IMG/VR virus record: IMGVR_UViG_3300022555_000015
From: a virus
Taxonomy: Duplodnaviria > Heunggongvirae > Uroviricota > Caudoviricetes
Length of the DNA stretch: 64,000 bases
Strand: one strand, 5' to 3'
Made by a program: the position numbers and the translations under genes. Positions 3,408-62,096 of this stretch are shown in pieces (position 1 is the first letter of the stretch; every line of letters begins with the position of its first letter). Under the pieces are notes generated by a model. The model worked only from the letters and a program-made list of their open reading frames with translations. It ran no database searches and was not told where the DNA came from.

Positions 3408-4646
3408 TTAGTGACCGTCCTTCTCACCGGCACGGCAGAGGTACTCATCACTGACGTACTTGAGGATCTTTCGGTAGGTGGAGCCGTCATCATCCACCAC
3501 TCGGGCTTCGGGCTCGGAGGTCACAACCACACCCTCTCGGACGTGGGTACCCCCAGGAACCGTAGTCTTGCCGTCTCGAAGTCCCATGACTACCTGGGCA
3601 TTGAAGGGGCCCCGGTAGAGCACAGGGACCGTTTCCACACCGAAGAGTTCTGCAATCTTCTGGATGACATCCCACGGTTGGAAAACGTGGTCAATCTCCA
3701 CGTCGAAGATGCGAACCTTCCGTTCACCATTGGCACACCCGTAGGTCAAGTCCTGGACCTTGGACCCGTAGATTTCACCATGAATGATGAAGTGCTCAGT
3801 GAAGGGCCACTTCCCGTTGTCATTCTGGAAGACCTCTCGGACCTTGGCCTCCGGGAAGTACTTCTGGCCCATCAAAGCGTACAAGGTAGTCCCATCCGGC
3901 TTCTTGGCCGTAGTGTGGGAGCCTACGATGTACTCCGGGGTGTCCTTGCCATCGAAGACCATGCCCACCCTGAAATTTGTCCCATGGATCTTCTCGGTGA
4001 GACGAATTGCCTCACCCTCCGTGAACCAAGACGGATGGTTCTTGGAGTTTTCGATGTCCGTGTAGTGGACGAAGCTTCCAGGAGACCTGACCATCTCACC
4101 CCTCATGTCCACGGGGACAGGGGGCTCATACCGCTCGATGTGCAGAGCATGGCAGATGAGAAGGCTCTCCAGGTCCACCTTGGTTTCGGCCAGGAGGATC
4201 TCCTGGGCAAATGGGTTATCCTTGTAGACTTCGGCCAGAACCGTCTTGGCATTCACTGAGGTATCTGCAAGGCAGTCCAGAAGACCCTTGGGGGCAGAGA
4301 TCACCAATCCCTGGCTGATCTGGCCCCGGAGCCGAACGGTCTTGACCCTGTGACCGGGCCTTCCGTCCGGGAACTTCTTGGTTGCCTTGAGGAATGCGAA
4401 CTCCGGGACCGCAGGGTCCAGGAGAGCGTCCAGGTGGATGTAGATGCCCTTGTAGACGGGAGGGTAGCCCTCTTCCAGAAGGTACTCCAGTTCCCCATCC
4501 ACTACAGACTGATGGGGAGAGCCCACCCAGTCGGAAGTACGCACCACACACTGCCAGCCCATGCCCTGAATTTTGGCAAGGCTCAGGGTGTCAGCGTTGG
4601 GGTGTTGGTCCAGGATGAACGTGACCTGTCGAGCAAGGATTTTCAT
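3408..4646 (-). CDS. ATP-dependent RNA ligase (Rnl2/Rnl5-like nucleotidyltransferase with N-terminal extension)
   Basis: covalent nucleotidyltransferase motifs EKIHGTNF (motif I, KxHGxN as in Rnl2/REL1 family), HGEIYG, REGVVVT (IV), ILKYV (V); start set to ATG 4644-4646 (MKILARQ..), 35 nt downstream of motif 4683-4698; ORF-track start 4808 lies upstream of that motif. Confidence 0.75.
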   Translation of the reverse strand: MKILARQVTFILDQHPNADTLSLAKIQGMGWQCVVRTSDWVGSPHQSVVDGELEYLLEEGYPPVYKGIYIHLDALLDPAVPEFAFLKATKKFPDGRPGHRVKTVRLRGQISQGLVISAPKGLLDCLADTSVNAKTVLAEVYKDNPFAQEILLAETKVDLESLLICHALHIERYEPPVPVDMRGEMVRSPGSFVHYTDIENSKNHPSWFTEGEAIRLTEKIHGTNFRVGMVFDGKDTPEYIVGSHTTAKKPDGTTLYALMGQKYFPEAKVREVFQNDNGKWPFTEHFIIHGEIYGSKVQDLTYGCANGERKVRIFDVEIDHVFQPWDVIQKIAELFGVETVPVLYRGPFNAQVVMGLRDGKTTVPGGTHVREGVVVTSEPEARVVDDDGSTYRKILKYVSDEYLCRAGEKDGH

Positions 4647-4682
4647 TTGGATTCTCCACCCTCTCTTACTCCGAGAGGGGAG

Positions 4683-4698
4683 AATCTTAACTGAAATC
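4683..4698 (-). promoter_or_regulatory. conserved upstream motif (gene orientation GATTTCAGTTAAGATT), candidate promoter
   Basis: AATCTTAACTGAAATC on plus strand; instance of ~20-copy motif. Confidence 0.45.
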
Positions 4699-4749
4699 TT
4701 CGATGTGGTGTGTAGTAGTTGTATGTGGGTAAGTTGTGTAGGGTGGGGT

Positions 4750-5175
4750 TTATTCCCCCTGTTCAATGATCCGCAAAGTCTTTCGTTCGATAGCACCCAG
4801 TTTGGCAAGTTTTGCCCAATCTACGTTATCCAGAGCATCCTGCATTTCTTCCATGATGCTCTCATTTTTCTTATATTCCTCTTGTACTTCTTCTTCTTCT
4901 CCAGTGAGGGAGAGGATCTGATCCTCTAGTTCAGTAATCTGCTCCTGGAGTTTTTCTTTCTTCTGATTGATGCCGCTGATCTTTGTTGAAAGCTCATCAT
5001 TCTCATTCTTGATATCTTGAATGCTACTTTCTGCTTCACTACTTGCGTCACTTGCTGCATCCTCAAAACTCTTGCCTTTGCTAGTTTTCAGGGTTGCAAG
5101 TAGAAGGATACGTTCCTTCGAACCCTTGGGGAGAGTAGATGCTAGACGGATGATCTTAGACCGTAGAATGTCCAT
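4750..5175 (-). CDS. coiled-coil acidic protein with N-terminal LRSKIIRLAS leader (leader-family member 1)
   Basis: ORF-track start at 5184 is GTG; ATG at 5173-5175 gives MDILRSKIIRLASTLPKG.. matching leader of 13558, 13931 and 61677 genes; strongly coiled-coil C-terminus (E/K/Q-rich). Confidence 0.5.
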   Translation of the reverse strand: MDILRSKIIRLASTLPKGSKERILLLATLKTSKGKSFEDAASDASSEAESSIQDIKNENDELSTKISGINQKKEKLQEQITELEDQILSLTGEEEEVQEEYKKNESIMEEMQDALDNVDWAKLAKLGAIERKTLRIIEQGE

Positions 5176-6836: not shown

Positions 6837-6911
6837 TGGTGGGCCGTGCAAGATTTGAACTTGCGACCTCCTCCGTGTAAGAGAGGCAATCTGCCGCTGA
6901 TATAACGGCCC
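6837..6911 (-). tRNA. tRNA-Val (anticodon UAC), CCA encoded
   Basis: GGGCCGT..ACGGCCC acceptor, anticodon stem CCTCT/GGAGG with loop CTTACAC, T arm GCAAG-TTCAAAT-CTTGC, then ACCA; D stem only 3 bp. Confidence 0.6.
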
Positions 6912-10460: not shown

Positions 10461-10504
10461 GAGATGTACCTTTTGATGGCTGTTACCCGGACTATGGCCG
10501 GTTG

Positions 10505-10577
10505 CGTTCCCATGGGGAATCGGACCCCAAACTTACGGATTTGAAATCCGCTGCTCTGCCAATTGAGCTATGGGAAC
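10505..10577 (-). tRNA. tRNA-Trp-like with anticodon UCA (reads UGA; opal suppressor or code-4-type tRNA-Trp)
   Basis: GTTCCCA-TA-GCTC-AATTGGCA-GAGC-A-GCGGA-TTTCAAA-TCCGT-AAGTT-TGGGG-TCCGATT-CCCCA-TGGGAAC-G; D arm near-identical to bacterial tRNA-Trp (TAGCTCAATTGGCAGAGCA); loop UUUCAAA gives U33 and anticodon UCA. Confidence 0.65.
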
Positions 10578-13044: not shown

Positions 13045-13518
13045 TTACTTGGGGATGATTCCTGCCAGCCTGAACTTTTCCTTGAGTTTCTCTTCCCCAA
13101 CCATGTTCAGAGTGCCATTCTCGGCCAGAGCTTCACCTGATGCCACAGCTTCCTCAAAGGCTGTAATAGTGACTGCTTGGTTCTTGGACTCGATGAACTT
13201 CTTCATCCATTCCATGATGTATTCCCGTGTCACTGAAGGATCACAACAGTTCATGAGGGAGTAGCCCCCTCCTCCCTTGGACACTACAAAAAAGTCCACC
13301 AGGGCTTGCATGGCCGAACGGTGGTAGTGCATCCACTCGGGGGTGATGGAGGCAATGACTTCGTTGTAGCCCGTACAGGTTTGGATCACATCCCCAGGCT
13401 TCAGGGTCAAACCCCAAAGGATGCCCTTGTCACTGTTGTCTCTCTTCTGTCGCCGAATGAACGACTTGGCATATCTGATCTTTCGGCTATTGATGGTTTT
13501 CATGGTGGTTTCCTTCAT
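13045..13518 (-). CDS. hypothetical protein A1 (157 aa), paralog of 14756..15226
   Basis: LWGLTLKPGDVIQTCTGYNEVIASITPEW vs LWGLTLKPGEVVYSYLGYNEKIEDLIPCW; ASGEALAENGTLN vs LTGEALNEDGTLN. Confidence 0.5.
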   Translation of the reverse strand: MKETTMKTINSRKIRYAKSFIRRQKRDNSDKGILWGLTLKPGDVIQTCTGYNEVIASITPEWMHYHRSAMQALVDFFVVSKGGGGYSLMNCCDPSVTREYIMEWMKKFIESKNQAVTITAFEEAVASGEALAENGTLNMVGEEKLKEKFRLAGIIPK

Positions 13519-13557: not shown

Positions 13558-13914
13558 ATGCCTACCCTACGATCCAAGATCATCAAGCTTGCCCATACAC
13601 ACCCTGAGCTTCGGAAGGAACTTCTTCCGATCTTGACTGAGAAGACCGCAGCCTACAACCCTACTGAACTTCTTAGGGTAGCAAAAGCAGTTGCGGCCTT
13701 GAACCTTCATACGGCAGCAAGCTCTGAAGACGTAGAGGCACTTTCCCGTATGTTTGAAGTGATGGGTTCCCTCATGTACATCCTGAACCAGGGCAAGTTG
13801 AAAGGGAAGCTCACTCAGTTGATCTTGAGAAACAGGGTCATCAGTGACAACCTTTATGAAATTTGGGGTGAGATGTTCATGCCCGGTGAAGTGACTGACG
13901 GATCTGCTATCTGA
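13558..13914 (+). CDS. leader-family protein B1 (MPTLRSKIIKLAHTHPELRKELLPIL...)
   Basis: AGGAG RBS; paralog of 13931..14320 over full length (KLKGKLTQLILRNRVIS vs KLKGMLTQEIVRNQSIQ). Confidence 0.55.
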   Translation: MPTLRSKIIKLAHTHPELRKELLPILTEKTAAYNPTELLRVAKAVAALNLHTAASSEDVEALSRMFEVMGSLMYILNQGKLKGKLTQLILRNRVISDNLYEIWGEMFMPGEVTDGSAI

Positions 13915-13930
13915 ACTTTAGGAGACTCCC

Positions 13931-14320
13931 ATGCCCAACCTTCGTGCCGCAATCATCAAGCTTGCACATGCTCACCCTGAGTTTCGTAGTGCTCTTCTCC
14001 CGGTATTGACCAAGAAGAAGGCTGGGACATACAATGCTATGGTTCTTGTACAAGCTGTAAAGGGCTTGGTTGAGAATCTTCATGGGACTCGTGAGACTCT
14101 CCCTTACAATGAGATTGCAGTAAGACTTGTGGTTATCTATGAGCAACTGGGGTTCATTCTCAGGTTCCTGGGTAGGAACAAATTGAAGGGTATGTTGACA
14201 CAGGAGATTGTCAGGAATCAGTCTATTCAGTCTGCCCTTGGTGATCTTCTATCCCTCGACTTGGATACTATGGATAATGTCCATACCCTGATGGACTCCA
14301 GCGAACATCCCATTGTATAG
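13931..14320 (+). CDS. leader-family protein B2 (MPNLRAAIIKLAHAHPEFRSALLPVL...)
   Basis: AGGAG RBS; tandem paralog of B1. Confidence 0.55.
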   Translation: MPNLRAAIIKLAHAHPEFRSALLPVLTKKKAGTYNAMVLVQAVKGLVENLHGTRETLPYNEIAVRLVVIYEQLGFILRFLGRNKLKGMLTQEIVRNQSIQSALGDLLSLDLDTMDNVHTLMDSSEHPIV

Positions 14321-14755: not shown

Positions 14756-15226
14756 TCACAGTGCAACATGCCGTCTCAGTTCCCGTCCCAAGGAGTTCAG
14801 GGTGCCATCCTCATTCAGAGCTTCTCCCGTGAGGATCGCTCTTGTGAGGGGCCTCATGCAGTCCAGGCCGATATGAGAGACAGCATCCTTCATAGTCTCG
14901 ATGATTTCAGCCTTGGTCTTGGGCTTGTCATAGCCTAGAGCAAAATGCCCCAACTGACCTTCGATCACAATGTCAATGTCCATCAGGATTCTACCCGTGC
15001 GGCGGATAGGCTCCCAACAGGGGATGAGGTCTTCGATCTTCTCATTGTAGCCGAGGTATGAATAGACAACCTCCCCAGGCTTCAGGGTCAACCCCCACAA
15101 GAGCCTTTGGAAGATGTAGGACTTCTTCATGTCCCGAAGCCAGGGCTTGGCATACCGAGACTTCCTGGTTTGAATGACCTTGTGCCACGGGACGGGGAAA
15201 TTCATGTGAGGGCCCTCAGCAACCAA
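14756..15226 (-). CDS. hypothetical protein A2, paralog of 13045..13518
   Basis: see A1. Confidence 0.5.
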   Translation of the reverse strand: MVAEGPHMNFPVPWHKVIQTRKSRYAKPWLRDMKKSYIFQRLLWGLTLKPGEVVYSYLGYNEKIEDLIPCWEPIRRTGRILMDIDIVIEGQLGHFALGYDKPKTKAEIIETMKDAVSHIGLDCMRPLTRAILTGEALNEDGTLNSLGRELRRHVAL

Positions 15227-15915: not shown

Positions 15916-16230
15916 CTACAGACCTTGCAGGCTGGGAGTCTGCCGCTCGGGTGCTACATAGTGGTGAAGTCCAGCATCGAGTCCGGTGCATCTACAGCAT
16001 TCCAACCTGCATTCGAACTGTCCCTGAGCCACTCCCATCCTGAAGGTGAGCCTGAACAAGAAGGAACACAACAGGAAGATGAACAAGAGCCAAAGGATCT
16101 TGGCAAAGACCTTCAGGTACTTGTGCCTATCCCAGAATGAAGGCGGGGTTTCTTGGACACTCAATCCCAGTCCCCGGAGTGAAGGGTCTAGTCCAAGGAG
16201 TGTTTCTTCTTGGTCTTTGGGCTTAGTCAT
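15916..16230 (-). CDS. small membrane protein (104 aa)
   Basis: hydrophobic core ILWLLFIFLLCSFLF; fills gap between rSAM and MTase genes. Confidence 0.4.
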   Translation of the reverse strand: MTKPKDQEETLLGLDPSLRGLGLSVQETPPSFWDRHKYLKVFAKILWLLFIFLLCSFLFRLTFRMGVAQGQFECRLECCRCTGLDAGLHHYVAPERQTPSLQGL

Positions 16231-17225
16231 GCGTGAAGGCTTCTTTCTACGGCCCCTACATTACCCACGGTATTGTTGAACTGCCTACAGAAGTCCAGGC
16301 ACGAACCGGAACAGATGGGGTCCTGGTGTGTGTCATGTGTCTGGAACCAATTGAATCTCTCCAACCTTACTTCCCTCATGGTAGTCATCTCACCGATGGG
16401 TTTGCCCTGTTCCCTCATGTAGATGGGGCACGGGTAGTGGTTCCCACCAATGTAGGTCACTTCGTCCAGGACCAGGGGACAGCAATGGTTGTCAGTATCC
16501 CTTAATCCCCGAACCTCAACCTTAGCCTGGAGGTTCTTGATCCTGTACTTGAGGATTGGATGAGCATTGAGGATACCCTCCGGGATGCCCACGGCTTCCA
16601 TCGTTCGGCCACTCTGGGCAGCGGGAATGAGCCGGATGTCAGCCACCCCAAGATCATGGGCAAACTGAACGATCCCGGTTGCTTCCGGGAGATTTTTGTC
16701 AGTCAGGACCACACCTACGGTTGTGTAGACTCTGTGACTCAACCACCGAATGTTCTCGATGACCTTCTCCCACTGACCCTTCACACCGGCCATAGTGTTC
16801 CCGGTACTTGCACAGCAAGCATCCAGGGAGACACTGAAGTCATCCACCCCAGCCTGGATGAGTTCCTCATAGATTTCTCTCGGAGCGGACCCGTTGGTAG
16901 ACACAGCCACTCGGTCACAAGTGAGACTTGCGAGTCCTACCAGTAGTGGGAGCGACTTGTGGAGGGTCGGTTCACCACCAGAGAAGCGAATGTGCTTCAA
17001 TCCGTGGCTTTGCCACTCACTCAGGGTTCTGACGGCTTTTGCCAAGGGGAGGCTTCCTCGGTACTCAGGCTTGACCCCTCGGCAGTAGCCACATTTGAAG
17101 TTGCAGGCATCCGTGAGGATCATCTCGCATCGCCACAGGGGAGAGCAAGCACTGGTTTGGAGGGCCCTTGCGTCGGACAGGGTGTAGAAACCGATGTCAT
17201 CCAGTCTGGTCATGTGGGTACTCAT
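16227..17225 (-). CDS. radical SAM enzyme (MoaA/PqqE-like core with C-terminal Cys-rich auxiliary-cluster region)
   Basis: ILTDACNFKCGYC (CxxxCxxC), FSGGEPTLH; C-terminal CCPLV..NHYPCPIY..CSGSCLDFC; start set to MSTHM at 17225 downstream of motif 17246-17261. Confidence 0.7.
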   Translation of the reverse strand: MSTHMTRLDDIGFYTLSDARALQTSACSPLWRCEMILTDACNFKCGYCRGVKPEYRGSLPLAKAVRTLSEWQSHGLKHIRFSGGEPTLHKSLPLLVGLASLTCDRVAVSTNGSAPREIYEELIQAGVDDFSVSLDACCASTGNTMAGVKGQWEKVIENIRWLSHRVYTTVGVVLTDKNLPEATGIVQFAHDLGVADIRLIPAAQSGRTMEAVGIPEGILNAHPILKYRIKNLQAKVEVRGLRDTDNHCCPLVLDEVTYIGGNHYPCPIYMREQGKPIGEMTTMREVRLERFNWFQTHDTHQDPICSGSCLDFCRQFNNTVGNVGAVERSLHA

Positions 17226-17245
17226 ACTTACCACATCCAGGGGGA

Positions 17246-17261
17246 GACTTAACCTGGATTC
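17246..17261 (-). promoter_or_regulatory. conserved upstream motif, candidate promoter
   Basis: GACTTAACCTGGATTC on plus strand. Confidence 0.4.
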
Positions 17262-17575
17262 TTCTGTGTGAGTTTCAGGAGGGCTAGAGCAATGGTATGG
17301 ACCGGCTTGCAATTCTCACAGGGCCCGGGATGCCCATAGGTCGTTACTTCCTTGTCTGAGATACGGAAGTAGGCTCCACAGGTAGAGCAACTGAAGGCAA
17401 AGACAAGCTGCCAGAGAATCTCCAGGAAGCCCTTTCCTGTGTGTTCTTGGGCATGATCATGCTCCTTGCACACAAGGTAATCGAACAAGGAACGATGAGC
17501 TTTGCTATGACAGTGCAAGCAAGTTGGGAGTTCAACTTTTCTTAGCTCATAGAGAAACTCTGACAGGTCACTCAT
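17249..17575 (-). CDS. Cys/His-rich small protein (108 aa)
   Basis: CLHCHSKAH..CKEHDH..CSTCGAY..CENCKPVH. Confidence 0.45.
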   Translation of the reverse strand: MSDLSEFLYELRKVELPTCLHCHSKAHRSLFDYLVCKEHDHAQEHTGKGFLEILWQLVFAFSCSTCGAYFRISDKEVTTYGHPGPCENCKPVHTIALALLKLTQKNPG

Positions 17576-33713: not shown

Positions 33714-35027
33714 TCAGTCCTCACCCTTGATGACGGCAACGGGCTTGAGCTTCAACGTGACGGCTGCAAGACCCGCCATCTCAACCGTATCCAGGACGGC
33801 ATCCAGGTTCTTGTAACAGGGCCCCGACTCATCGAGGGGGATTTCACGGGTATTCACGAGGATGTCGAGTTCCTCCATCCTCCGATTGATGTACTCCTGG
33901 TCAAGCTTCTTCTTGGCCTGATTCCGACCCAGCCTTCGGCCCGCACCATGATTGACAGAGTAGGCAGACTCCTTGGCCCCAGCCAGGGGAAAGAGCACCG
34001 CAGCCCCTTCCTCCATAGACCCAGGGATCAAGATGGGGTGACCCGTCTCTTCCCACTTGGAGCCCATCAGGAGAGGGTGCTGTCCAGGGAATGCTCTGGT
34101 GGCACCCTTCCGATGAACGAACCGATCACCCTCCCGCTGAATGAGATTGTGGGAAATCTCATAGTAGAGTTCGGCCGTGCCACCGAAGACACTCTTGAGA
34201 GCCCCAATGACTTCCTTTGCAATCACCAGTCGGTTAGCGATTGCAAAGTTTGCTGCCCTGTTGTGATCATTCCAATAGAGCTTGCCGAGCTCGGAGTCAG
34301 CCTCCATGCACACCAAGTCCTCATCCTTCTTGGCAAGGCCCTGGGCAATGCACCCTCGGGAGAAGTAGTGCTGTGCCGTGACATAGCCCAGACCCCTGGA
34401 CCCCGTGTGGAGCATGATCCATACTTTGTCGTCATCTCCTACCTGCATCTCACAGAAATGGTTTCCTGACCCAAGAGATCCAAGTTGATTCCCCTTCATC
34501 ATTGCCATAGGAAGGGGGGGTGCCAAGTCAGGATCAACGGGAAGGCAATCTCTTTCAGAGTTCCCCCTGGACTCACCAAAAGCCAAGGCACCCCTATTGA
34601 TAATGTCAATGAGATCCTCTTTGGATATATCCTGAGAGCCTGCATGACCGAGACCAACACCAATGCGACTCTCTACCTTCTTCATCCAACGACGACGTAG
34701 GTCTTTGCTCTTAACATCTTCCCTTGTTAGAGATGTGCTGATTAAAACCATACCGCAAGATATGTCATACCCTGCTGCTGTAGGCAAAAGAGTACCTTCG
34801 GTTTCAATTACACAACCAATAGGTACACCGTAACCTGTGTGTACATCAGGTGTAATAACTACCTTCTTGACTCCTGGCAGTCCAGCGGCTCTTTCAATCT
34901 GAGCCCAGGCATTCTCTTCTGATGCCTGAAAGAGAAGATCACTGAGAAAGACACTCACTGGACAGGGGAGTCCCTCGACAACCCAATGTCCCTCAGAAAC
35001 CTTCGTTGCTCTGTCCTTGAGACTCAT
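33714..35027 (-). CDS. rtcB: RtcB-family 3'-phosphate/2',3'-cyclic phosphate RNA ligase
   Basis: ITPDVHTGYGVPIG, GSGNHFCEMQ, LHTGSRGLG, VNHGAGR: hallmark metal and GTP-binding motifs of RtcB. Confidence 0.8.
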   Translation of the reverse strand: MSLKDRATKVSEGHWVVEGLPCPVSVFLSDLLFQASEENAWAQIERAAGLPGVKKVVITPDVHTGYGVPIGCVIETEGTLLPTAAGYDISCGMVLISTSLTREDVKSKDLRRRWMKKVESRIGVGLGHAGSQDISKEDLIDIINRGALAFGESRGNSERDCLPVDPDLAPPLPMAMMKGNQLGSLGSGNHFCEMQVGDDDKVWIMLHTGSRGLGYVTAQHYFSRGCIAQGLAKKDEDLVCMEADSELGKLYWNDHNRAANFAIANRLVIAKEVIGALKSVFGGTAELYYEISHNLIQREGDRFVHRKGATRAFPGQHPLLMGSKWEETGHPILIPGSMEEGAAVLFPLAGAKESAYSVNHGAGRRLGRNQAKKKLDQEYINRRMEELDILVNTREIPLDESGPCYKNLDAVLDTVEMAGLAAVTLKLKPVAVIKGED

Positions 35028-36252: not shown

Positions 36253-36746
36253 TTCTTGGGTTCTACAGGTTCCTCGGAGACCCTTCGAACGGCACCCAAC
36301 ATCTGTCCCATCCTACGTCCAGGGAGTCTCTTGGACATGGGAACACAGGGTTCAGAGTCTCTCGGCTTCTGGGGGTTCTCACCTTCTGGATTTGAAGGCT
36401 CATTGGGCAGAACACCTACGGGACCTGGACGGGAAACAACTTCACTCAAGAAAGACAGGGGAGGGAGGCTATCCAGAGATTTCAGTACGGACTGAGGAAA
36501 TCCATAGGCTTCCCTGAAGCCCTTCTTTTGTCTCTCAATGAACTCCTTGCGTTCCTTGTACTCTTCGGAGTCTGAATCTACGAAGTGGTGCCCGCAAGAC
36601 AGGCAGGCATGTGTTGGGTCTTCTGCATGTTCTAGTGAACTCCCCAGGACAGCCTCTCCACGTATGACTTTCGCCCAAGAGGTTTGCGACAGTCTACTAT
36701 AGAGGACAGGGATGTTCTTTTCACTCTCACAAATGGGACATTTCAT
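36249..36746 (-). CDS. zinc-ribbon protein (165 aa)
   Basis: MKCPICES..CLSCGHH. Confidence 0.45.
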   Translation of the reverse strand: MKCPICESEKNIPVLYSRLSQTSWAKVIRGEAVLGSSLEHAEDPTHACLSCGHHFVDSDSEEYKERKEFIERQKKGFREAYGFPQSVLKSLDSLPPLSFLSEVVSRPGPVGVLPNEPSNPEGENPQKPRDSEPCVPMSKRLPGRRMGQMLGAVRRVSEEPVEPKK

Positions 36747-37771
36747 GTCTTCACCGTGCGGTACAGTTCCATATCCATCACTTGAAGTGTATCAAACAAT
36801 TCCAAACCGGGTAGGAATTGAATCAGGGCTTCCAGGCCGAAGAAGGCACCCAGGAAGGCTCCTGCTACGGCTGCTCTGGAGTCAGTGTCACCACCACCCA
36901 TGATAGCAACCTCATAGGTTCCTCTGGCAACACCATCAGCGTGTTCCAATACATTGTCCCCGGCCATCTTCAATCGAGACAGGAAACAATAGAAAGCCAT
37001 GGGGACCAGTTCCCACACCTTGCCTGAGTTCCCCAGGATTGTGTAAGCTTCCTTCCAATAGAGACTTTTCTCCAGCATTAGCTGGACAAGTCGTAGACCC
37101 TTGAAGGTCATTGTGTCCTTATAGCCATGCTCTTCCAGTGTCTTGATGACGGAAGAAAGCATGATATCGTAGGGCACAGTTCCTTTAGGCATCTTCCGGC
37201 AGTAATAGGTCATCAGAGCTACGGCAATGGACCCAGCCCTACCTTCGGGATGTTTGTGAGTCAGGTTGGCATCGAGTTCAGCAAACTGAAGGATATTCTC
37301 CTTGTCATAGACAACCCCAAGGGGGGCTACCCTCATAGCAGAACCACAACCAATGATATCTCCTACCTTGAAGTCCCTACTGGCAGTTCTCCAATTTCCC
37401 AGATCACTGACAAGCTTGTCCATGGCATAGCGGACGGTACTCCCCGTCCCTCTACAGGCACCACTAGGCCCCTTGCCCTGATACCAGTTCCGGTAAGCTT
37501 CGGCTACAACCACGGGGTTGTAAGCATGATGGCTGATGATGCACTGGGCGAGAGCCAGGGTCATCTGTGTGTCATCTGTCCAGGCACCGGCTTTTAGACC
37601 CGCTTCCCCTAGGTTCTTGAACCCACCAGAGAGATAGGTATGTCCATCCCAGTTTACCAGGGGAGGGTACTCTGCATCCTTGTTCTCAAAGGTTTTGCCT
37701 AGGGCATCCCCAATAGCAGTTCCGAGAACAACGTAAGGAACTACACCGTTCATTAGTCCAGGGCTCCCCAT
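36743..37771 (-). CDS. ADP-ribosylglycohydrolase (ARH/DraG family)
   Basis: GTAIGDALG...WTDDTQMTLALA and GGDTDSRAAVAGAFLGA: both Mg-binding motifs of ARH fold. Confidence 0.7.
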   Translation of the reverse strand: MGSPGLMNGVVPYVVLGTAIGDALGKTFENKDAEYPPLVNWDGHTYLSGGFKNLGEAGLKAGAWTDDTQMTLALAQCIISHHAYNPVVVAEAYRNWYQGKGPSGACRGTGSTVRYAMDKLVSDLGNWRTASRDFKVGDIIGCGSAMRVAPLGVVYDKENILQFAELDANLTHKHPEGRAGSIAVALMTYYCRKMPKGTVPYDIMLSSVIKTLEEHGYKDTMTFKGLRLVQLMLEKSLYWKEAYTILGNSGKVWELVPMAFYCFLSRLKMAGDNVLEHADGVARGTYEVAIMGGGDTDSRAAVAGAFLGAFFGLEALIQFLPGLELFDTLQVMDMELYRTVKT

Positions 37772-42346: not shown

Positions 42347-43948
42347 TCAGTAGCAGGAACCTGCCCTGCAAGTACCCCCACAACGATGCCCACAAGTCCC
42401 ACAATTGTCGTTGTCAAAACCCATGTTGATACAGGTCCCGTGACAAAGCCCAAGGCCCACAGGACACTGACAGGCAAAGGTTGAGGTACAAAGTTGGCCC
42501 CCACCACAACCATGACCACAAACACCACAGTTGGTGGTGGTGTTCAGGGCTGCACAGACCCCAGAGCAACATCCTTGACCCGTTGCACAGCTTCGGCCAC
42601 AAGCCCCGCAGTTGAGGGCATCCTCCATGATGTTCGTGCAGTAGCTACCACAGAGGGTCTGTCTGACAGGGCAGGTACAGGTCCCACTGACACAGGTCTG
42701 TCCAGTACCGCAAGTGTGCCCACAGGCACCACAATTGATGGGGCTTGTGTTGAGGCTCGCTTCGCAACCATCCGAAGGGTTGCCGTTGCAATCGGCATAG
42801 AGAGGGAGGCAAGAGAAGGCACAGGTACTTGCCGAACACCTGGGTGCCGTTGCGTTGGCTGGGGTTGAGCACACCCTCCCACACGTCCCACAGTTGTTGG
42901 TGTCAGTAGTGGTGTCCACGCACATCCCGGAGCAATTGAGGGTCCCACCAGAACAGGAGAGGGTACAAGCCCCAGCCGAGCAGACATAGCCAGTCGTGCA
43001 ATAGTGCCCACAGGCTCCACAGTTGAAGTTGCTGATCTGGAGGTTGGTCTCACATCCGTTGGAAGTGGTGATCCCTAGGTCACCATCACAATCAGTGAGT
43101 CCAGCGTTGCAAACCCAGCCTCCACAGGTCCCAGCGGTACAGGTCCCGTGGGCACCGACCCTAGAGCACACGTTCCCGCAAGCCCCACAAGACATTGAAC
43201 TGTTGAGGTCTGCTTCACAGCCGTCTGTCATGGAACCGTTACAGTTGGCCCAGCCTGGGGCACAGACGGTTCCACAAGTCCCGGAGGTACAGGTAGGGGT
43301 GGTATTGGGTTGGGTAGGGCATCCATACCCACAGGTTCCGCAGTTGTTCAGGTCCGTTGAGAGGGTTACTTCACAGCCGTTGGTCACAATCCCATCACAG
43401 TTATCCTGGCCCGACGAGCACCGGAAGATGCACGTCCCTGACTCACAGATGGCTGGGGCACCTGAACGGATGGGACACACGTTCCCGCAGACCCCACAGT
43501 TGGAGGTCATGGTCTGGAGGTCCACGCATGAGGTCCCGCAACGGGTCTGCCCGTAGGGGCACGTCCCCGTGTCCGTTCCAGTGTCTCGGGTTCCCGTGTC
43601 CGTCCCGGTTCCCGTGTCTCGGGTTCCGGTATCCGTCCCGGTATCCTGGATTCCTGAGTCAGTTCCCGTGTCTTGGGCAATCCAGGTATCCGTCCTCGAA
43701 TCCGTCCCGGTGTCTTGGGCAATCCAGGTGTCCGTCCCGGTGTCTGGGGCAACCCAGGTGTCCGTTCCAGTTCCCGTGTCGGGATTGGAAGTCTCGGAAG
43801 TGCTGGAATCCTGAGTCTCGGAAGCTCGGGAGTCCTGAACCTCGGCATCCGTGTCACCGTCAGGGCCCGGAATTGCGGCAGGTTCCCGCCACTGACGGAT
43901 ATCCCAGCATCCCATGACGAACAAACACAGCAGGAAGATTCGACTCAT
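42347..43948 (-). CDS. secreted/lipoprotein Cys-rich repeat protein (533 aa; ~20 NCGxCGxxC-type repeats; N-terminal TGTDTW Thr/Asp-rich tandem repeats)
   Basis: signal peptide with lipobox-like LFVMGC; repeats NCGVCGNVC, NCGTCGYGC, SCGACGNVC, NCGACGHYC etc.; AAAGGG RBS; motif 43991-44007 upstream. Confidence 0.6.
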   Translation of the reverse strand: MSRIFLLCLFVMGCWDIRQWREPAAIPGPDGDTDAEVQDSRASETQDSSTSETSNPDTGTGTDTWVAPDTGTDTWIAQDTGTDSRTDTWIAQDTGTDSGIQDTGTDTGTRDTGTGTDTGTRDTGTDTGTCPYGQTRCGTSCVDLQTMTSNCGVCGNVCPIRSGAPAICESGTCIFRCSSGQDNCDGIVTNGCEVTLSTDLNNCGTCGYGCPTQPNTTPTCTSGTCGTVCAPGWANCNGSMTDGCEADLNSSMSCGACGNVCSRVGAHGTCTAGTCGGWVCNAGLTDCDGDLGITTSNGCETNLQISNFNCGACGHYCTTGYVCSAGACTLSCSGGTLNCSGMCVDTTTDTNNCGTCGRVCSTPANATAPRCSASTCAFSCLPLYADCNGNPSDGCEASLNTSPINCGACGHTCGTGQTCVSGTCTCPVRQTLCGSYCTNIMEDALNCGACGRSCATGQGCCSGVCAALNTTTNCGVCGHGCGGGQLCTSTFACQCPVGLGLCHGTCINMGFDNDNCGTCGHRCGGTCRAGSCY

Positions 43949-46979: not shown

Positions 46980-47393
46980 CTAAGCCTTGATGTACTTGAT
47001 CCCCAGGTAAGCTTCAGTAGCATCTGAACAATTCTTGTTGCAGAAGTTAGGGGCATAGGGGTTATCATTCCCTAACCGATCTTTCCTGAAGACATCCTCA
47101 CCACAGTCCATGCACTTCCCTACGGGACGGTTCTCTTCGGCTAACTCTTCGTAGTCACCATCTTGGGAGGGGAATTGACATGCCGTGGGGTCTACAATGT
47201 CACCCTCGGGGGATACACACCACCAGTGTTGCTGCTTCCCCCAGTAGGGGCAATAGTAATATCCAGCTACTAGCCTTAGCTCTGGGAACACCTTCTTTAT
47301 GGCACGAGAGAGTTTCCCACAATCACCCCTGCCCTTACCGGGTTTGTTGGCAGGGGAATGAGCATCTAACCATGCTTGATACTTACTCAGCAT
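46980..47393 (-). CDS. Cys-rich protein (137 aa)
   Basis: ORF track. Confidence 0.45.
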   Translation of the reverse strand: MLSKYQAWLDAHSPANKPGKGRGDCGKLSRAIKKVFPELRLVAGYYYCPYWGKQQHWWCVSPEGDIVDPTACQFPSQDGDYEELAEENRPVGKCMDCGEDVFRKDRLGNDNPYAPNFCNKNCSDATEAYLGIKYIKA

Positions 47394-49089
47394 ACCAACC
47401 CTTACCGTACAGGCTTAGGATCTGATCGAAGTATTGCTGGTATTGTGGTGCTACGGCATCAATGGTGAAGTTGTTCATAGCCCACATCAGACAACTTGCG
47501 GGGTTGATACTGTCAATGTTCCTGACTGCTTCCAGGAATTCCTTGAAGTTTCGGCAACGGTAACCCGTTCTGCCATGGACTACTGTCTCAGGGAAGGCAC
47601 CGAAGTCTGTAGTGATAACTGGAGTTCCTGAGAAAGCTGCTTCCAGGGCAACGTAGCCGAAGGGTTCCAGGTAGGTAGTGGGCATGAAGACAGCTTTAGC
47701 CCGACTCAGGAGTTCCCGACGCTTCTCCTTCCCAGCGAAGCCCACATACTCAACACAGGGGTCTTGCGTGACTTCTCTGAATACTTCATCTCCATGGCCG
47801 AAACCGGCAACAATGAGCTTTTTGCCTAGCCTCTTGCAGACATCCTTAGCAATCAGGATGCCCTTACCGGAAATGATCCTGCCAATGAACAGGAAGTAGT
47901 CATCCTTATCCCCGGAGTAAGTGAAGTCTCTGGGATCGAAGAAGCCAGGGATCACTGTGTCATAGAAGTTCCCGTCCCCCTTCCTCTCGGCCCCGTAGGT
48001 CCAGTTCATGTGAGCATGGCTCTCAAAGATACGGAATCGGGCAAAGGAACCTGTGTACCCTATCCCTATCTCAACCGTATCCTTGATGTCCACGGCATCC
48101 GCAATGGGCTTCTGGTACACCCCAAAGGAACAGAGTAGGAAGTCCCCGAAGAGTTTCCGACTATTGATTTCTCGGATGGCATTCTCATTGAAGGTCTTGT
48201 GAGCTAGGTTGTCCTCACCCTCACCGTAGACCTTGGTCTTGTCCCACTTGCCATAACATTCCTCCAGGATTGCCTTGGTGGACACCTGGACGAACTCATC
48301 GGCATTTGTTTTCGACCCCTCTACACCGTACAGGATGACATGGTGCCCTAGCTTCTTGAGCACCTGGACCATGCGAACACACTTTGATGCAAAGGCGTTT
48401 CCTAACCCTTCATCCTCCAGGGTTACCGGGGCATTGAAGGGACCTAAGAGATGGATTCTGAGAGGTTCCTTGACCGGAACTACATCCTGATTCTTGACCA
48501 AGATACGGTTACCGTAAGCTCGGTCAGTCGTGACCAGCTTGAAACCGTAAGTGTCAACCAACCAGTCTGTAGTCTTGTTGTACCAATCCTCCAGGATGAT
48601 TGTCAGCGGACGGTGGGTTTGGAGAACTCTCTCCATACCTTGAAGTGCCTGCTTCTCATGCCCTTCGATGTCCAGCTTGATCATATCCGGGTCAGGAATG
48701 CCCAGGTCATCAAAGGGCAGGGCCCGTACACTCACGGACTCCCCAGTGCCCAGTAGGCTATGCTCCCCTGAAGTCTTGCCTTTGAACAGGTTTGCTTCCC
48801 TGGCCGAATTGGAAAGGGCATAGTCAAAGACCATCACCCTCATACCCTGGACGTTCCGCAAGAGGTACTCACGGTTCATGGGGCTGGGTTCAAAGGCATA
48901 GACCTTGGCACCCAGGGAAGCTGCTAGCGTTGAGTAGTAGCCTACTTGTGCCCCTACGTCTAAGAACACTTGACCGGGCTTCAGGTGACTTTGGACATAC
49001 TCAGTAGTCCTATTCTCCCAAACCCCATAGCGTTCCATATCACGCTTGACGTAATCGAATCCTTCGGGGAACTCCAGGGTCTTCATCAT
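47383..49089 (-). CDS. bifunctional FkbM-family methyltransferase / GT4 (GT-B) glycosyltransferase
   Basis: N-terminus VFLDVGAQVGYYS...VYAFEPSP (FkbM SAM-MTase motifs); C-terminus PTTYLEPFGYVALEAAFSGTPVITTDFGAFPETVVHGRTGY (GT1/GT4 E-x7-E region). Confidence 0.7.
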   Translation of the reverse strand: MMKTLEFPEGFDYVKRDMERYGVWENRTTEYVQSHLKPGQVFLDVGAQVGYYSTLAASLGAKVYAFEPSPMNREYLLRNVQGMRVMVFDYALSNSAREANLFKGKTSGEHSLLGTGESVSVRALPFDDLGIPDPDMIKLDIEGHEKQALQGMERVLQTHRPLTIILEDWYNKTTDWLVDTYGFKLVTTDRAYGNRILVKNQDVVPVKEPLRIHLLGPFNAPVTLEDEGLGNAFASKCVRMVQVLKKLGHHVILYGVEGSKTNADEFVQVSTKAILEECYGKWDKTKVYGEGEDNLAHKTFNENAIREINSRKLFGDFLLCSFGVYQKPIADAVDIKDTVEIGIGYTGSFARFRIFESHAHMNWTYGAERKGDGNFYDTVIPGFFDPRDFTYSGDKDDYFLFIGRIISGKGILIAKDVCKRLGKKLIVAGFGHGDEVFREVTQDPCVEYVGFAGKEKRRELLSRAKAVFMPTTYLEPFGYVALEAAFSGTPVITTDFGAFPETVVHGRTGYRCRNFKEFLEAVRNIDSINPASCLMWAMNNFTIDAVAPQYQQYFDQILSLYGKGWYAE

Positions 49090-57234: not shown

Positions 57235-57674
57235 TGAAGACCCTCTGCCTATGCCTTTTGATGGGGTGTTCCCAGCTATCTCCTGAAGATCGGGAAGCAC
57301 CGGCACCTGTGCATATCCCTGTGCATACCTCACCGGCACCTAGCCCTGTCCCTGTCCCTGCATCACCGGCACCTGTACCTGCCACAACGGATATCACCAA
57401 CGCTCGGTCGGCTGCAATCCATGAGGTCTGGAACATCTCGCAGAGGTCTCCAGCCGCAGAACGGGGACAGATTGTAGTGACGTGCAGGGCAGTTACAGCG
57501 ATGAATGCCATCTGCACGGCTAACTACCTCCAACTCCCCACCCTGAGAATGGAGTGCGAGAACGGCCCCTACCCTTACAACGGTGGGTGCGTGATTCTGG
57601 GGGATGCCAACCCTCCAACGGATGAACTCACGGCATGGGACCGACACTTCATCCCAGGTTTGATCGTTCACTAG
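57234..57674 (+). CDS. lipoprotein with Pro-rich linker, paralog of 58480..58887
   Basis: MKTLCLCLLMGCS lipobox; LRMECENGPYPYNGGCVILGD vs LTLMCHNGPYPYNHGCVIPLY. Confidence 0.5.
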   Translation: MKTLCLCLLMGCSQLSPEDREAPAPVHIPVHTSPAPSPVPVPASPAPVPATTDITNARSAAIHEVWNISQRSPAAERGQIVVTCRAVTAMNAICTANYLQLPTLRMECENGPYPYNGGCVILGDANPPTDELTAWDRHFIPGLIVH

Positions 57675-57682
57675 AGGTAACT

Positions 57683-58483
57683 ATGCTTGTTCACGTCATT
57701 GGTACTGGGGATGCCTTCTCCAAGACTCGCTTCGGGTCATCTCTACTGGTCCAAGCTGAAGGTGGGGCTATTCTCATTGATACACCCCCGGCACTGAGCC
57801 ATGCCCTCCGAAGCTACCATTCCACAATGGGTCTGGATGACATCACAACGGTGTTGATCACACACCTTCACTCCGATCATGTCGGAGGGTTGGAGCAACT
57901 GCTCTTCCACCAGAGACTCGTCAGGGGTCAGAAGATCAGGATTCTCGGGGCACCGGAAGTCCTGGAGAACCTGTGGGGTCACACCCTCAAGGGAGGGATG
58001 GGACAGATTACTAGCCCTCTCACGGGTAAGCCTCTGGCAATGCAGATGGATGACTACGCAACCCTGGTTCCAATCAAGCCTGGGGAGAGATTTCAGGCTA
58101 CTGACAACCTGGAAGTACAGCTTCATCTCACGAAGCATCACATCCCGACAACTGCGGTCAAGATCACCGAGACTGGTGAAAAGACCTTTGCTTACAGTTC
58201 CGACACGGCTTTCAGTCCAGAAATCATCGAATGGATGGATGCCTATGTGATGGTCCATGAAGTCGGAGCCGGGAATGGCTGGGGGGCTATCGAAGCAACC
58301 CATACGTCCCTAACCAAGCTCATGGAGTTGCCAGCTAGTGTCAGGGAGAAGATGTACCTGACGCACTACTGCGATGCTTTCCCGATTGAGGTCTGTCCTA
58401 TCCCATGTCTCAGGGACGGTAACTGCCTGACTATCAACTTGAGGGAATTCCCTGCGGGTCATCCTTCCACAAGGGACACATGA
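57683..58483 (+). CDS. metallo-beta-lactamase-fold hydrolase, RNase Z/ElaC-like
   Basis: HxHxDH in ITHLHSDHVGG; N-terminal VIGTGDAFSKTRFGSSLL resembles RNase Z LGTGxGxPSxxRNVSS motif; trimmed to MLVHVIG at 57683. Confidence 0.6.
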   Translation: MLVHVIGTGDAFSKTRFGSSLLVQAEGGAILIDTPPALSHALRSYHSTMGLDDITTVLITHLHSDHVGGLEQLLFHQRLVRGQKIRILGAPEVLENLWGHTLKGGMGQITSPLTGKPLAMQMDDYATLVPIKPGERFQATDNLEVQLHLTKHHIPTTAVKITETGEKTFAYSSDTAFSPEIIEWMDAYVMVHEVGAGNGWGAIEATHTSLTKLMELPASVREKMYLTHYCDAFPIEVCPIPCLRDGNCLTINLREFPAGHPSTRDT

Positions 58484-61676: not shown

Positions 61677-62096
61677 ATGGACAATCTACGTTCCAAAATC
61701 ATCAAGTTAGCCCATTCTAAACCGGAACTTCGACCTTACCTACTTCCGATCCTGAAGCAAGCCACGGACTTCCCTACCCAGGAAGCCCTGGACAAGTACC
61801 TCAAGGACCATCCAGGAGCCGACAAGTCCAAGCACAAGGTTACGGATTCGGACAAGGGGAAGGAACTTTCGGACAAGGCAGAGCAGTCTAGTGCAGAAGC
61901 AAATCGAACTAGAGACTGGCGTCAATCTAGTGAAGCTCATGCCCAAGCCATGCACGACCAGTCTGTAGCAGCTAAACACCATGAGGGACAGGGAAACACA
62001 GAAAAGGCCAAATACCATCGAGAAAAGGTCAAGAAGCATAAGAGTAGAACGGATGCAAAGACTTACAAGAGTGTTGTTGGTGAGGGCTGGGAATAG
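61677..62096 (+). CDS. leader-family protein (MDNLRSKIIKLAHSKPELRPYLLPIL...), highly charged/disordered remainder
   Basis: ORF-track start 61665 is GTG; ATG at 61677 gives the conserved leader. Confidence 0.5.
   Translation: MDNLRSKIIKLAHSKPELRPYLLPILKQATDFPTQEALDKYLKDHPGADKSKHKVTDSDKGKELSDKAEQSSAEANRTRDWRQSSEAHAQAMHDQSVAAKHHEGQGNTEKAKYHREKVKKHKSRTDAKTYKSVVGEGWE

Follow-up and report, generated by a model that had tools for sequence, protein, structure and literature searches.

The question raised by the locus studied here is why several genes of one phage, whose products appear to have little else in common, begin with the same short leader. The DNA is a stretch of 64,000 nucleotides from a virus of the class Caudoviricetes, held as IMG/VR record IMGVR_UViG_3300022555_000015, and this whole stretch is called the window below. 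A previous reading of its letters alone (hereafter, the sequence-only reading) had pointed to a leader shared by four genes and had compared it with the peptides that target proteins to the capsids of phages T4 and phiKZ, leaving a docking helix for a common partner as the alternative. We report that this leader is one instance of a large, undescribed module that is restricted to huge phages, and that the docking helix is the proposal best supported by the evidence. Our preferred explanation, which we hold tentatively and to which we give slightly less than an even chance, is that the module (the tag) docks its cargo to a common phage-encoded receptor or assembly, i.e., that it works as a portable address tag.

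The ORF (open reading frame) translations give the four genes with the coordinates and N-termini that had been assigned to them:

13558-13914, plus strand: g13558, 118 aa; module at residues 1-27 (nt 13558-13638), a short linker and a helical orphan cargo
13931-14320, plus strand: g13931, 129 aa; module at nt 13931-14011, then a non-helical linker (about residues 28-35) and an orphan cargo that is helical throughout
61677-62096, plus strand: g61677, 139 aa; module at nt 61677-61757, a second motif (FPTQEALDKYLKDHPGADKSKHKV) and a charged low-complexity tail
4750-5175, minus strand: g5175, 141 aa; a variant module at residues 1-30 (nt 5175-5086; LRSKIIRLASTLPKGSKERILLLATL) and an acidic coiled-coil cargo

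The leader is common to exactly these four genes. In the six-frame translation, the strict motif LR[SA][KA]II[KR]LA is present four times, each time at residues 4-12, right behind the start methionine, and a loose pattern of the first helix gives four matches in the window vs. a mean of 0.12 and a maximum of 2 in 200 shuffles. A profile hidden Markov model (HMM) of the leader matches, among the window ORFs, these four alone, with E-values of 3e-18 (g61677), 8e-18 (g13558), 1e-16 (g13931) and 1e-13 (g5175). When only the leaders are compared by BLASTP, the four genes share 47-70% identity. Beyond residue 30, the sole related pair is the tandem g13558/g13931 (44% identity over 102 aa, E = 1e-22), and thus the cargos are indeed unrelated apart from these two paralogs. 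One part of the original description has to be amended, since helix 1 is common to all four leaders but the turn and helix 2 of g5175 are a variant with a 3-residue insertion (LASTLPKGSKER..LL..L). This variant is a recurring subfamily that is also present in protein P0005 and in three ORFs of other loci.

Over leader codons 2-28, the ratio of nonsynonymous to synonymous divergence (dN/dS) is 0.21-0.27 with a dS of 0.8-1.6, which is near saturation, and the identity at third positions is just 46-57%. Therefore, selection acts at the protein level, as had been suggested, and the copies are old; the saturated dS also argues against a recent spread of the tag. A DNA- or RNA-level element, or a recent gene-conversion tract, would be another way to obtain similar leaders in unrelated genes, but it is excluded by such dS values combined with a dN/dS of about 0.2.

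Scans of Pfam, PHROGs and NCBIfam with the four proteins gave no match at E <= 1 in the region of residues 1-30. In these same libraries g13558 has no match over its entire length, whereas the Pfam scan of g5175 returned only weak matches of coiled-coil type. No homolog of the g13931 cargo was found besides an identical protein that is present on 41 contigs, and a protein identical to g61677 is encoded on 38 metagenome contigs; the contigs carrying g61677 and g13931 reach 215,642 bp. As the sequence-only reading had also noted, three of the four genes are plus-strand genes in a minus-strand region, g13558/g13931 and g61677 forming two plus-strand islands. The genes that flank g13558/g13931, at 13045-13518 and 14756-15226 (both on the minus strand), are paralogs too (38% identity over 137 aa, E = 3e-26), and the segment as a whole, about 2.2 kb, therefore has the look of an island that was duplicated and rearranged locally.

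The profile search that had been proposed for the leader revealed a family of thousands. An exhaustive HMMER search of 1.84 billion cluster representatives with the 31-column leader profile retrieved 3,383 proteins at E <= 1e-3, of which 216 reach E <= 1e-10. In IMG/VR, which was scanned with two consensus peptide patterns, 63 loci were found, the majority on contigs of 50-497 kb and frequently with several on the same contig. Nearly the same patterns gave only three matches in 185,579 prokaryote genomes (one per bacterial or archaeal species), all of them on contigs of metagenome-assembled genomes (MAGs) of 1.9, 7 and 207 kb, and in two of the three (L065 and L066) the match is limited to a part of the tag. 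The full-length match (L064, E = 3e-10) is on the 1.9-kb contig JAPKZA010000101.1 of an 'Acidobacteria' MAG and is suspected to be a mis-binned fragment of a huge phage; the partial match L066 is on the 207-kb contig WYAZ01000191.1 of a 'Deltaproteobacteria' MAG. Among 50,697 deposited phage records searched by tblastn with the tag, the sole carrier is LR745208.1, a complete 485-kb uncultured huge phage that has 11 copies across its whole chromosome, 10 of them directly after the start methionine and 1 internal. The tag is found repeatedly on the same DNA, with 4 copies in the window, 11 in LR745208.1 and up to 8 per 20-kb locus. The tag profile matched 0 chains of the PDB sequences at E <= 10, and no description of the tag was found in the literature by full-text searches on the motif and related concepts, including comparative-genomics papers. 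Nearly all members of the family belong to large or huge uncultivated phages.

The alignment of 137 distinct copies from phage DNA defines a core of 23 residues, L4 to L26, with the consensus LRxx[LIV]IRLAHxxPELRxxLLPLL, and the whole tag comprises 23-27 residues. Within positions 4-26, 16 positions are conserved at 65-100%, including the polar residues R5, R10, H13, E17 and R19, and the conservation is gone beyond position 27-30. The main residues are:

position 4: L 92%
position 5: R 93%
position 8: L/V/I 91%
position 9: I 92%
position 10: R 80% (K 15%)
position 11: L 95%
position 12: A 98%
position 13: H 71% (Y 15%)
position 16: P 100%
position 17: E 65%
position 18: L 78%
position 19: R 90%
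position 22: L 81%
position 23: L 85%
position 24: P 90%
position 25: L 77%
position 26: L 88%

The two halves of the module have the same spacing (L-R-x-x-hydrophobic-hydrophobic-x-hydrophobic-hydrophobic), that is, LRxxLIxLA in the first half and LRxxLLPLL in the second. AlphaFold (AF2) models of a natural two-tag protein and of g13931 show the tag as a helix-turn-helix followed by a non-helical linker. In g13931, whose alignment held its paralog only, the helices span residues 4-14 and 16-27 at a low confidence (predicted local distance difference test, pLDDT, of 50); the model of the two-tag protein has a modest one (pLDDT of 62, predicted template modeling score, pTM, of 0.39), and a Foldseek search with it gave no meaningful fold match. 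The tag is thus predicted to fold as two short amphipathic helices joined at the invariant proline. Helical-wheel reasoning suggests that the hydrophobic arc of either helix spans about 160 degrees and has a conserved arginine at its edge, and that R10 and H13 lie on the polar face. Such a hairpin would expose a broad hydrophobic strip bordered by Arg, His and Glu residues that are nearly invariant. This conserved surface is too large for a free-standing mini-domain, and therefore we infer that the tag is most likely buried against a partner.

Two simpler roles might be considered for such a sequence. Both helices are amphipathic and basic (the isoelectric point of the leader is 9.7-11), as in a generic membrane-targeting helix, and a degron that times the destruction of early proteins could be shared in the same manner, given that elements of both kinds can sit at either terminus. 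We regard these two possibilities as highly unlikely, because the conservation observed (P16 100%, A12 98%, L11 95%, R5 93%, R19 90%) is far above what they need and because a degron would hardly be expected in tandem or at internal positions.

The cargos are very diverse. After masking the tag, the 134 unique tag-bearing proteins of the window and the 63 viral loci fall into at least 104 unrelated cargo clusters. The position of the tag also varies: among 145 copies in phage loci, around 80% are N-terminal (86 clear cases plus 29 with a methionine just upstream), 13 lie at the very C-terminus, and truly internal copies number about 19. The top database matches are proteins with 2-11 copies of the tag, and many of these multi-tag proteins are 'bookends', having a tag at both ends and charged disordered linkers. 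The linkers hold recurring mini-motifs, namely, GCEKLPEGPMRDNC, DEPYMKGxFTQQE, MSPEDxxxWxxNTxKYKDKFK, and FPTxEALxKYLKxHPGADxSKHxV, the last of which is also present in g61677. The modules GCEKLPEGPMRDNCxKKKEE, FDPxEIG...DEPYMKGxFTQQE, GKFEEGKPADPTKNMSPEDxxxWxxNTxKYKDKFK, and GEVPEAFKKQWKDKDKDNDGKENEP were seen in the linkers of P0011, P0012, P0021, P0023, P0027 and alignment A8. Together they look like a kit of linear motifs, none of which is annotated.

The second motif of g61677, FPTQEALDKYLKDHPGADKSKHKV, is located directly after the tag at residues 32-55 (nt 61770-61841). Other metagenome proteins, some with the tag and some lacking it, contain this motif too, at times internally or repeated. 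The motif corresponds to no curated family and is also found in a 1097-aa topoisomerase IB protein encoded beside a portal gene. The loci with this motif are L039:12124-15417, L002:11281-12216, L002:12226-13041, L011:8690-11284 and L035:9995-10420.

A conserved leader followed by a variable 'core' is the pattern of ribosomally synthesized and post-translationally modified peptides (RiPPs), and a gene for a radical SAM enzyme (16227-17312) is located 2 kb from g13558/g13931. It is nevertheless extremely improbable that the tag is a RiPP-type leader for this enzyme, no more probable than the nucleotide-level explanations mentioned above. The cargos range from 90 to >1000 aa, C-terminal tags exist, and the radical SAM homolog of LR745208.1 (at 147 kb) is >75 kb from any tag gene. 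For this lack of linkage in LR745208.1 the radical SAM enzyme was rejected as a tag maturase, and the same features separate the tag from RiPP precursors.

The multi-copy bookend proteins with their disordered charged linkers fit a multivalent docking, in which proteins carrying from two to several tags would act as multivalent linkers. The same architecture can be read in another way, that is, as stickers and spacers. The hairpins might pair with one another, for instance in a four-helix bundle, and the tagged proteins of a phage would then co-assemble into a single body or condensate without any receptor, the multi-tag proteins being the cross-linkers. The many proteins with 2-11 copies and charged disordered spacers, as well as the wide hydrophobic face of both helices, are in agreement with such a self-association, and concerted variants within a genome are equally expected from homotypic pairing. 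We consider it unlikely all the same, since the 11 tagged proteins of LR745208.1 are single-tag proteins and neither this phage nor the window has a multi-tag protein, and since the near-invariant polar residues and the two prolines exceed the needs of a simple bundle. The AF2 model of the two-tag protein, of modest confidence (pTM 0.39), showed no bundle-like fold match, a result that is uninformative on this point rather than negative.

The tags of one genome resemble each other. The identity of the tag core is 69.8% within a genome vs. 60.1% between genomes, and 0 of 1000 label permutations reach this difference. A 497-kb phage has a private form, NPGEVRDAILPL, with a one-residue insertion, on unrelated cargo; LR745208.1 has the private form TLRSKLIRLAHxNPALRP; and the three canonical copies of the window have I8, K10 and I/V25 in common. 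Private variants on unrelated cargo are expected if all copies track one partner, and thus the within-genome variants fit a co-evolution of all the tags with one partner, or with each other.

Such a partner might also belong to the host. In this explanation, the tag would bind a conserved host protein, e.g., RNA polymerase, a chaperone or a protease adaptor, steering diverse effectors to it. The tag genes are found in neighborhoods of counter-defense or host-takeover type, and the conserved exposed polar residues fit a specific interface. We judge this mimicry of a host hub to be distinctly unlikely, because private tag variants are less expected for a conserved host target and multi-tag proteins are hard to rationalize; moreover, the tag is virtually absent from bacterial genomes and so was not copied from a host motif. 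Docking to a receptor or assembly specified by the phage remains the reading that we favor, in which the tag, via a variable linker, would bring many unrelated accessory proteins of one phage to the same place. In its favor are the sharp boundaries of the tag, its conservation on all faces, its fusion to unrelated cargo, its many copies per genome, the genome-specific variants, the multivalent forms and the restriction to large uncultivated phages. The data establish the modularity of the tag, its boundaries, its distribution, the selection on the protein and the genome-specific variants; that it binds a partner, which partner this is and where the cargo goes are inferred.

The leading candidate for the place of docking, although rather unlikely overall, would be the interior of the assembling capsid, from which the cargo would be ejected with the DNA. 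In one clade, the genes of the large terminase and portal alternate with tag genes of unrelated cargo that run in the same direction, and 2 of the 11 tag genes of LR745208.1 adjoin its terminase/portal block. Some tag genes elsewhere thus adjoin portal and terminase genes, while no capsid or shell gene was identified near the tag genes of the window. The domains recognized in the cargos of 121 tagged proteins are DUF2958 (2), DUF5710 (2), RNA ligase, pentapeptide repeats, ART-PolyVal and WGR, with weak matches to ParB-like nuclease and RelA/SpoT. They are mainly of conflict or DNA-entry types, which is a circumstantial hint at a capsid destination; ART and DdrB-like ParB domains have been described in effectors that are packaged in the phage head and injected with the DNA (PMC5512222).

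If the capsid is the destination, the tag could be a capsid-targeting sequence (CTS) of T4 type, that is, a propeptide at the N-terminus by which a protein binds the prohead core and which the prohead protease then removes. The site of the T4 prohead protease is [L/I]xE, and the cleavage motif of phiKZ and SPN3US has the form S/A/G-x-E. An [LIV]xE sequence directly follows the tag in 43 of 134 copies (32%), [SAG]xE occurs within the 12 residues after the tag in 29 of 134 (22%), and position 28 is E in only 27% of copies. Only one of the four window genes, g13558, has a cleavage-type site after the tag (L-T-E directly after it). There is no conserved cleavage site and, therefore, the tag is not a cleavable capsid-targeting sequence of T4 type. 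The extreme N-terminal position of all four window copies and of about 80% of the copies in phage loci, as well as the L-T-E of g13558, would agree with such a sequence, and a short leader common to unrelated small proteins is the architecture of the T4 internal proteins (IPs) and Alt (PMC7411985). We give this explanation a very low probability, given the C-terminal and internal copies, the lack of a conserved cleavage motif and the lack of sequence similarity to any cultured phage. For these reasons, and in view of the proteins with 2-11 copies, the analogy with T4 and phiKZ put forward by the sequence-only reading does not stand as membership in those families. Capsid loading by a mechanism other than that of T4 is plausible, and in it the tag would not be removed at a conserved T4-like cleavage site.

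A more ambitious version is that an uncultivated lineage of huge phages loads dozens of unrelated accessory and counter-defense proteins per genome into the capsid, or into another phage-built compartment, by means of a 23-residue 'zip code', and that these proteins are co-delivered with the DNA. The tag would then be the distributed counterpart of polyvalent proteins, and the disordered multi-tag proteins would be the scaffold. This version is rather unlikely as a whole.

Several observations weigh against docking and, in particular, against the capsid as its destination. The structural models have a low-to-modest confidence (pLDDT 50 and 62) and no fold match. The similarity of the tags within a genome could come from a lineage-specific expansion instead of from co-evolution with a receptor. 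The terminase/portal block of the clade mentioned above is not a purely structural operon, since genes for a clamp-loader fragment, a sigma factor and a topoisomerase IB belong to it as well, and the other 9 copies of LR745208.1 are scattered. Most tag genes, including all four of the window, are located amid accessory or counter-defense genes and not among structural genes; likewise, two bookend proteins on 170-214-kb contigs are in accessory neighborhoods of the NAD/nucleotide-conflict type. The four upstream regions have no common signal according to a promoter/terminator scan and a k-mer comparison, and hence no common upstream motif ties the four window genes to a temporal class. Finally, just about 10% of the cargos have any recognizable domain, and the theme of conflict effectors rests on few cases.

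Two further neighbors were considered for a dedicated role and rejected. A Dps/ferritin-like protein was considered as the receptor, but this most frequent neighbor 'family' (20 loci) is a heterogeneous cluster, united by a Dps/ferritin-like domain, and is unlinked to the tag genes in LR745208.1. A C39-like peptidase was considered as a dedicated tag protease; it recurs nearby but is equally unlinked to the tag genes in LR745208.1. As for the Dps/ferritin-like proteins themselves, their signature is QTAHWxxxGxxFYGxHLLFxxxYE...D.LAEK, some members have HPGA..H motif variants at the N-terminus, and in IMG/VR loci their genes are often directly downstream of a tag gene (L008:10298-11242, L009:10298-11395, L033:10343-12022, L042:10321-11616, L055:13414-14013 and L062:11203-12033). 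An actin-like protein of the Volactin family (E = 5e-80) is also recurrent in the vicinity of tag genes, as is a C39-like peptidase of 826 aa. The large terminase of related huge phages carries an intein that includes a LAGLIDADG domain, and a LAGLIDADG insertion is present in their portal gene as well. The terminase, portal, Volactin and C39 observations come from L039:2796-5978, L039:6509-9796, L044:10595-11770 and L008:16538-19018.

Whatever its destination, the tag defines a large module family that is unmatched in the curated libraries searched, and together with the other recurring mini-modules it suggests that huge phages have a modular interaction network built on motifs. Should the tag prove to be an address label, a functionally linked set of proteins, thousands of them in public data, is thereby defined at once in huge phages whose genes have almost no other annotation. 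It would then be possible to predict from the sequence alone which proteins are co-localized, and possibly packaged and injected, in phages without a cultured host, and the tag would be a candidate for portable use, to carry foreign cargo into large capsids or phage compartments. If the zip-code version were true, the tag would directly read out the injected proteome of unculturable phages.

The rest of the window is that of a fragment of a large phage, with a coding density of about 92% (crude gene call, 131 ORFs). The majority of the ORFs scanned have no family match, and megablast found no nucleotide match for the window region in cultured phages or INPHARED. In LR745208.1, 14 of the 131 genes have relatives, e.g., the RNA ligase (50% identity) and the radical SAM protein (55%). 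The window also encodes an SPFH protein, and a set of five genes has the style of RNA repair and counter-defense. These five encode an Rnl-type RNA ligase with a PHA02142 OB-fold, RtcB, an ADP-ribosylglycohydrolase, an Apyc1-like (anti-Pycsar) metallo-beta-lactamase hydrolase and the radical SAM enzyme. This set and the other features observed in the window are:

3408-4808, minus strand: gene of the RNA-repair/counter-defense set
16227-17312, minus strand: gene of the same set, radical SAM enzyme
33714-35027, minus strand: gene of the same set
36743-37771, minus strand: gene of the same set
57635-58483, plus strand: gene of the same set
42347-43948, minus strand: 533-aa protein, unusual for a phage, with two cysteine-rich domains like Stig1 (E = 3e-18), a Pfam family of plant stigma proteins
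47383-49089, minus strand: 568-aa protein, a fusion of an FkbM methyltransferase and a GT4 glycosyltransferase
10504-10577, minus strand: tRNA predicted by ARAGORN
6837-6911, minus strand: tRNA predicted by ARAGORN

One of these two tRNAs has the anticodon TCA and is labeled as selenocysteine (SeC) tRNA, although it could be an opal suppressor, and the other is tRNA-Val(TAC). The window ORFs are readable in the standard code, and any recoding would thus take place elsewhere in the genome.

The tag can be compared with several known systems. The T4 CTSs, N-terminal propeptides with a length of about 10-20 aa, bind to the prohead core and are taken off by gp21, and they are sufficient to carry a foreign cargo into the prohead, the cargo being ejected with the DNA (PMC9958956, PMC7411985). 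The tag resembles the CTSs of IPI-III and Alt in being a short N-terminal peptide common to unrelated small proteins of one phage. It differs from them in being a 23-residue hairpin that is also C-terminal, internal or multi-copy and that has no conserved protease site; neither tblastn against the 50,697 phage records nor PHROGs showed a sequence relationship with the T4 CTS/IP family. In phiKZ and SPN3US, many head proteins are loaded, and N-terminal propeptides, together with a C-terminal one, are thought to target them; these propeptides, of 64-130 aa, are long and have no sequence in common, and their removal takes place at a defined motif reminiscent of that of T4 gp21 (PMC7411985). In contrast, the tag has 23-27 aa and is followed by [SAG]xE in only 29 of 134 copies, and none of the phiKZ-like phages among the records searched by tblastn carries it. 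The tag is a member of neither the T4 CTS nor the phiKZ propeptide families.

The cargo-loading peptides of encapsulins and bacterial microcompartments are short amphipathic helical tags that are located at either terminus, connected by a flexible linker, retained on the cargo and bound to the inner face of the shell. The C-terminal coat-binding domain of the P22 scaffolding protein is a basic helix-turn-helix. The likeness to these systems lies in an amphipathic helical tag on unrelated cargo, and in the case of P22 also in a similar size; the profile and the AF2 models of low-to-modest confidence give the same layout as in cargo-loading peptides, i.e., a short amphipathic terminal helical element with a linker to the cargo. 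The differences are that there is no homology, that no linked shell or receptor gene was identified for the window genes, and that the tag is far more conserved in sequence and is spread over dozens of genes per genome.

Polyvalent proteins, which belong to phages and conjugative elements, combine 2-15 disparate conflict domains in one polypeptide, and their entry into the host together with the DNA has been proposed (Iyer et al., 2017; PMC5512222). Among the tagged cargos, at least one has ART-PolyVal and one has a weak ParB-like nuclease match; only some relatives of the window proteins have single domains of this sort, such as ART-PolyVal or RNA ligase. The window proteins, of 118-141 aa and with one small cargo each, have no polyvalent-protein domain and no Pfam domain. 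Unlike in polyvalent proteins, each small cargo is a separate tagged gene, which would be a 'distributed' version of the same idea. A targeting peptide common to diverse cargo is a known concept, while this module, its scale and its usage at several positions and in multiple copies are new.

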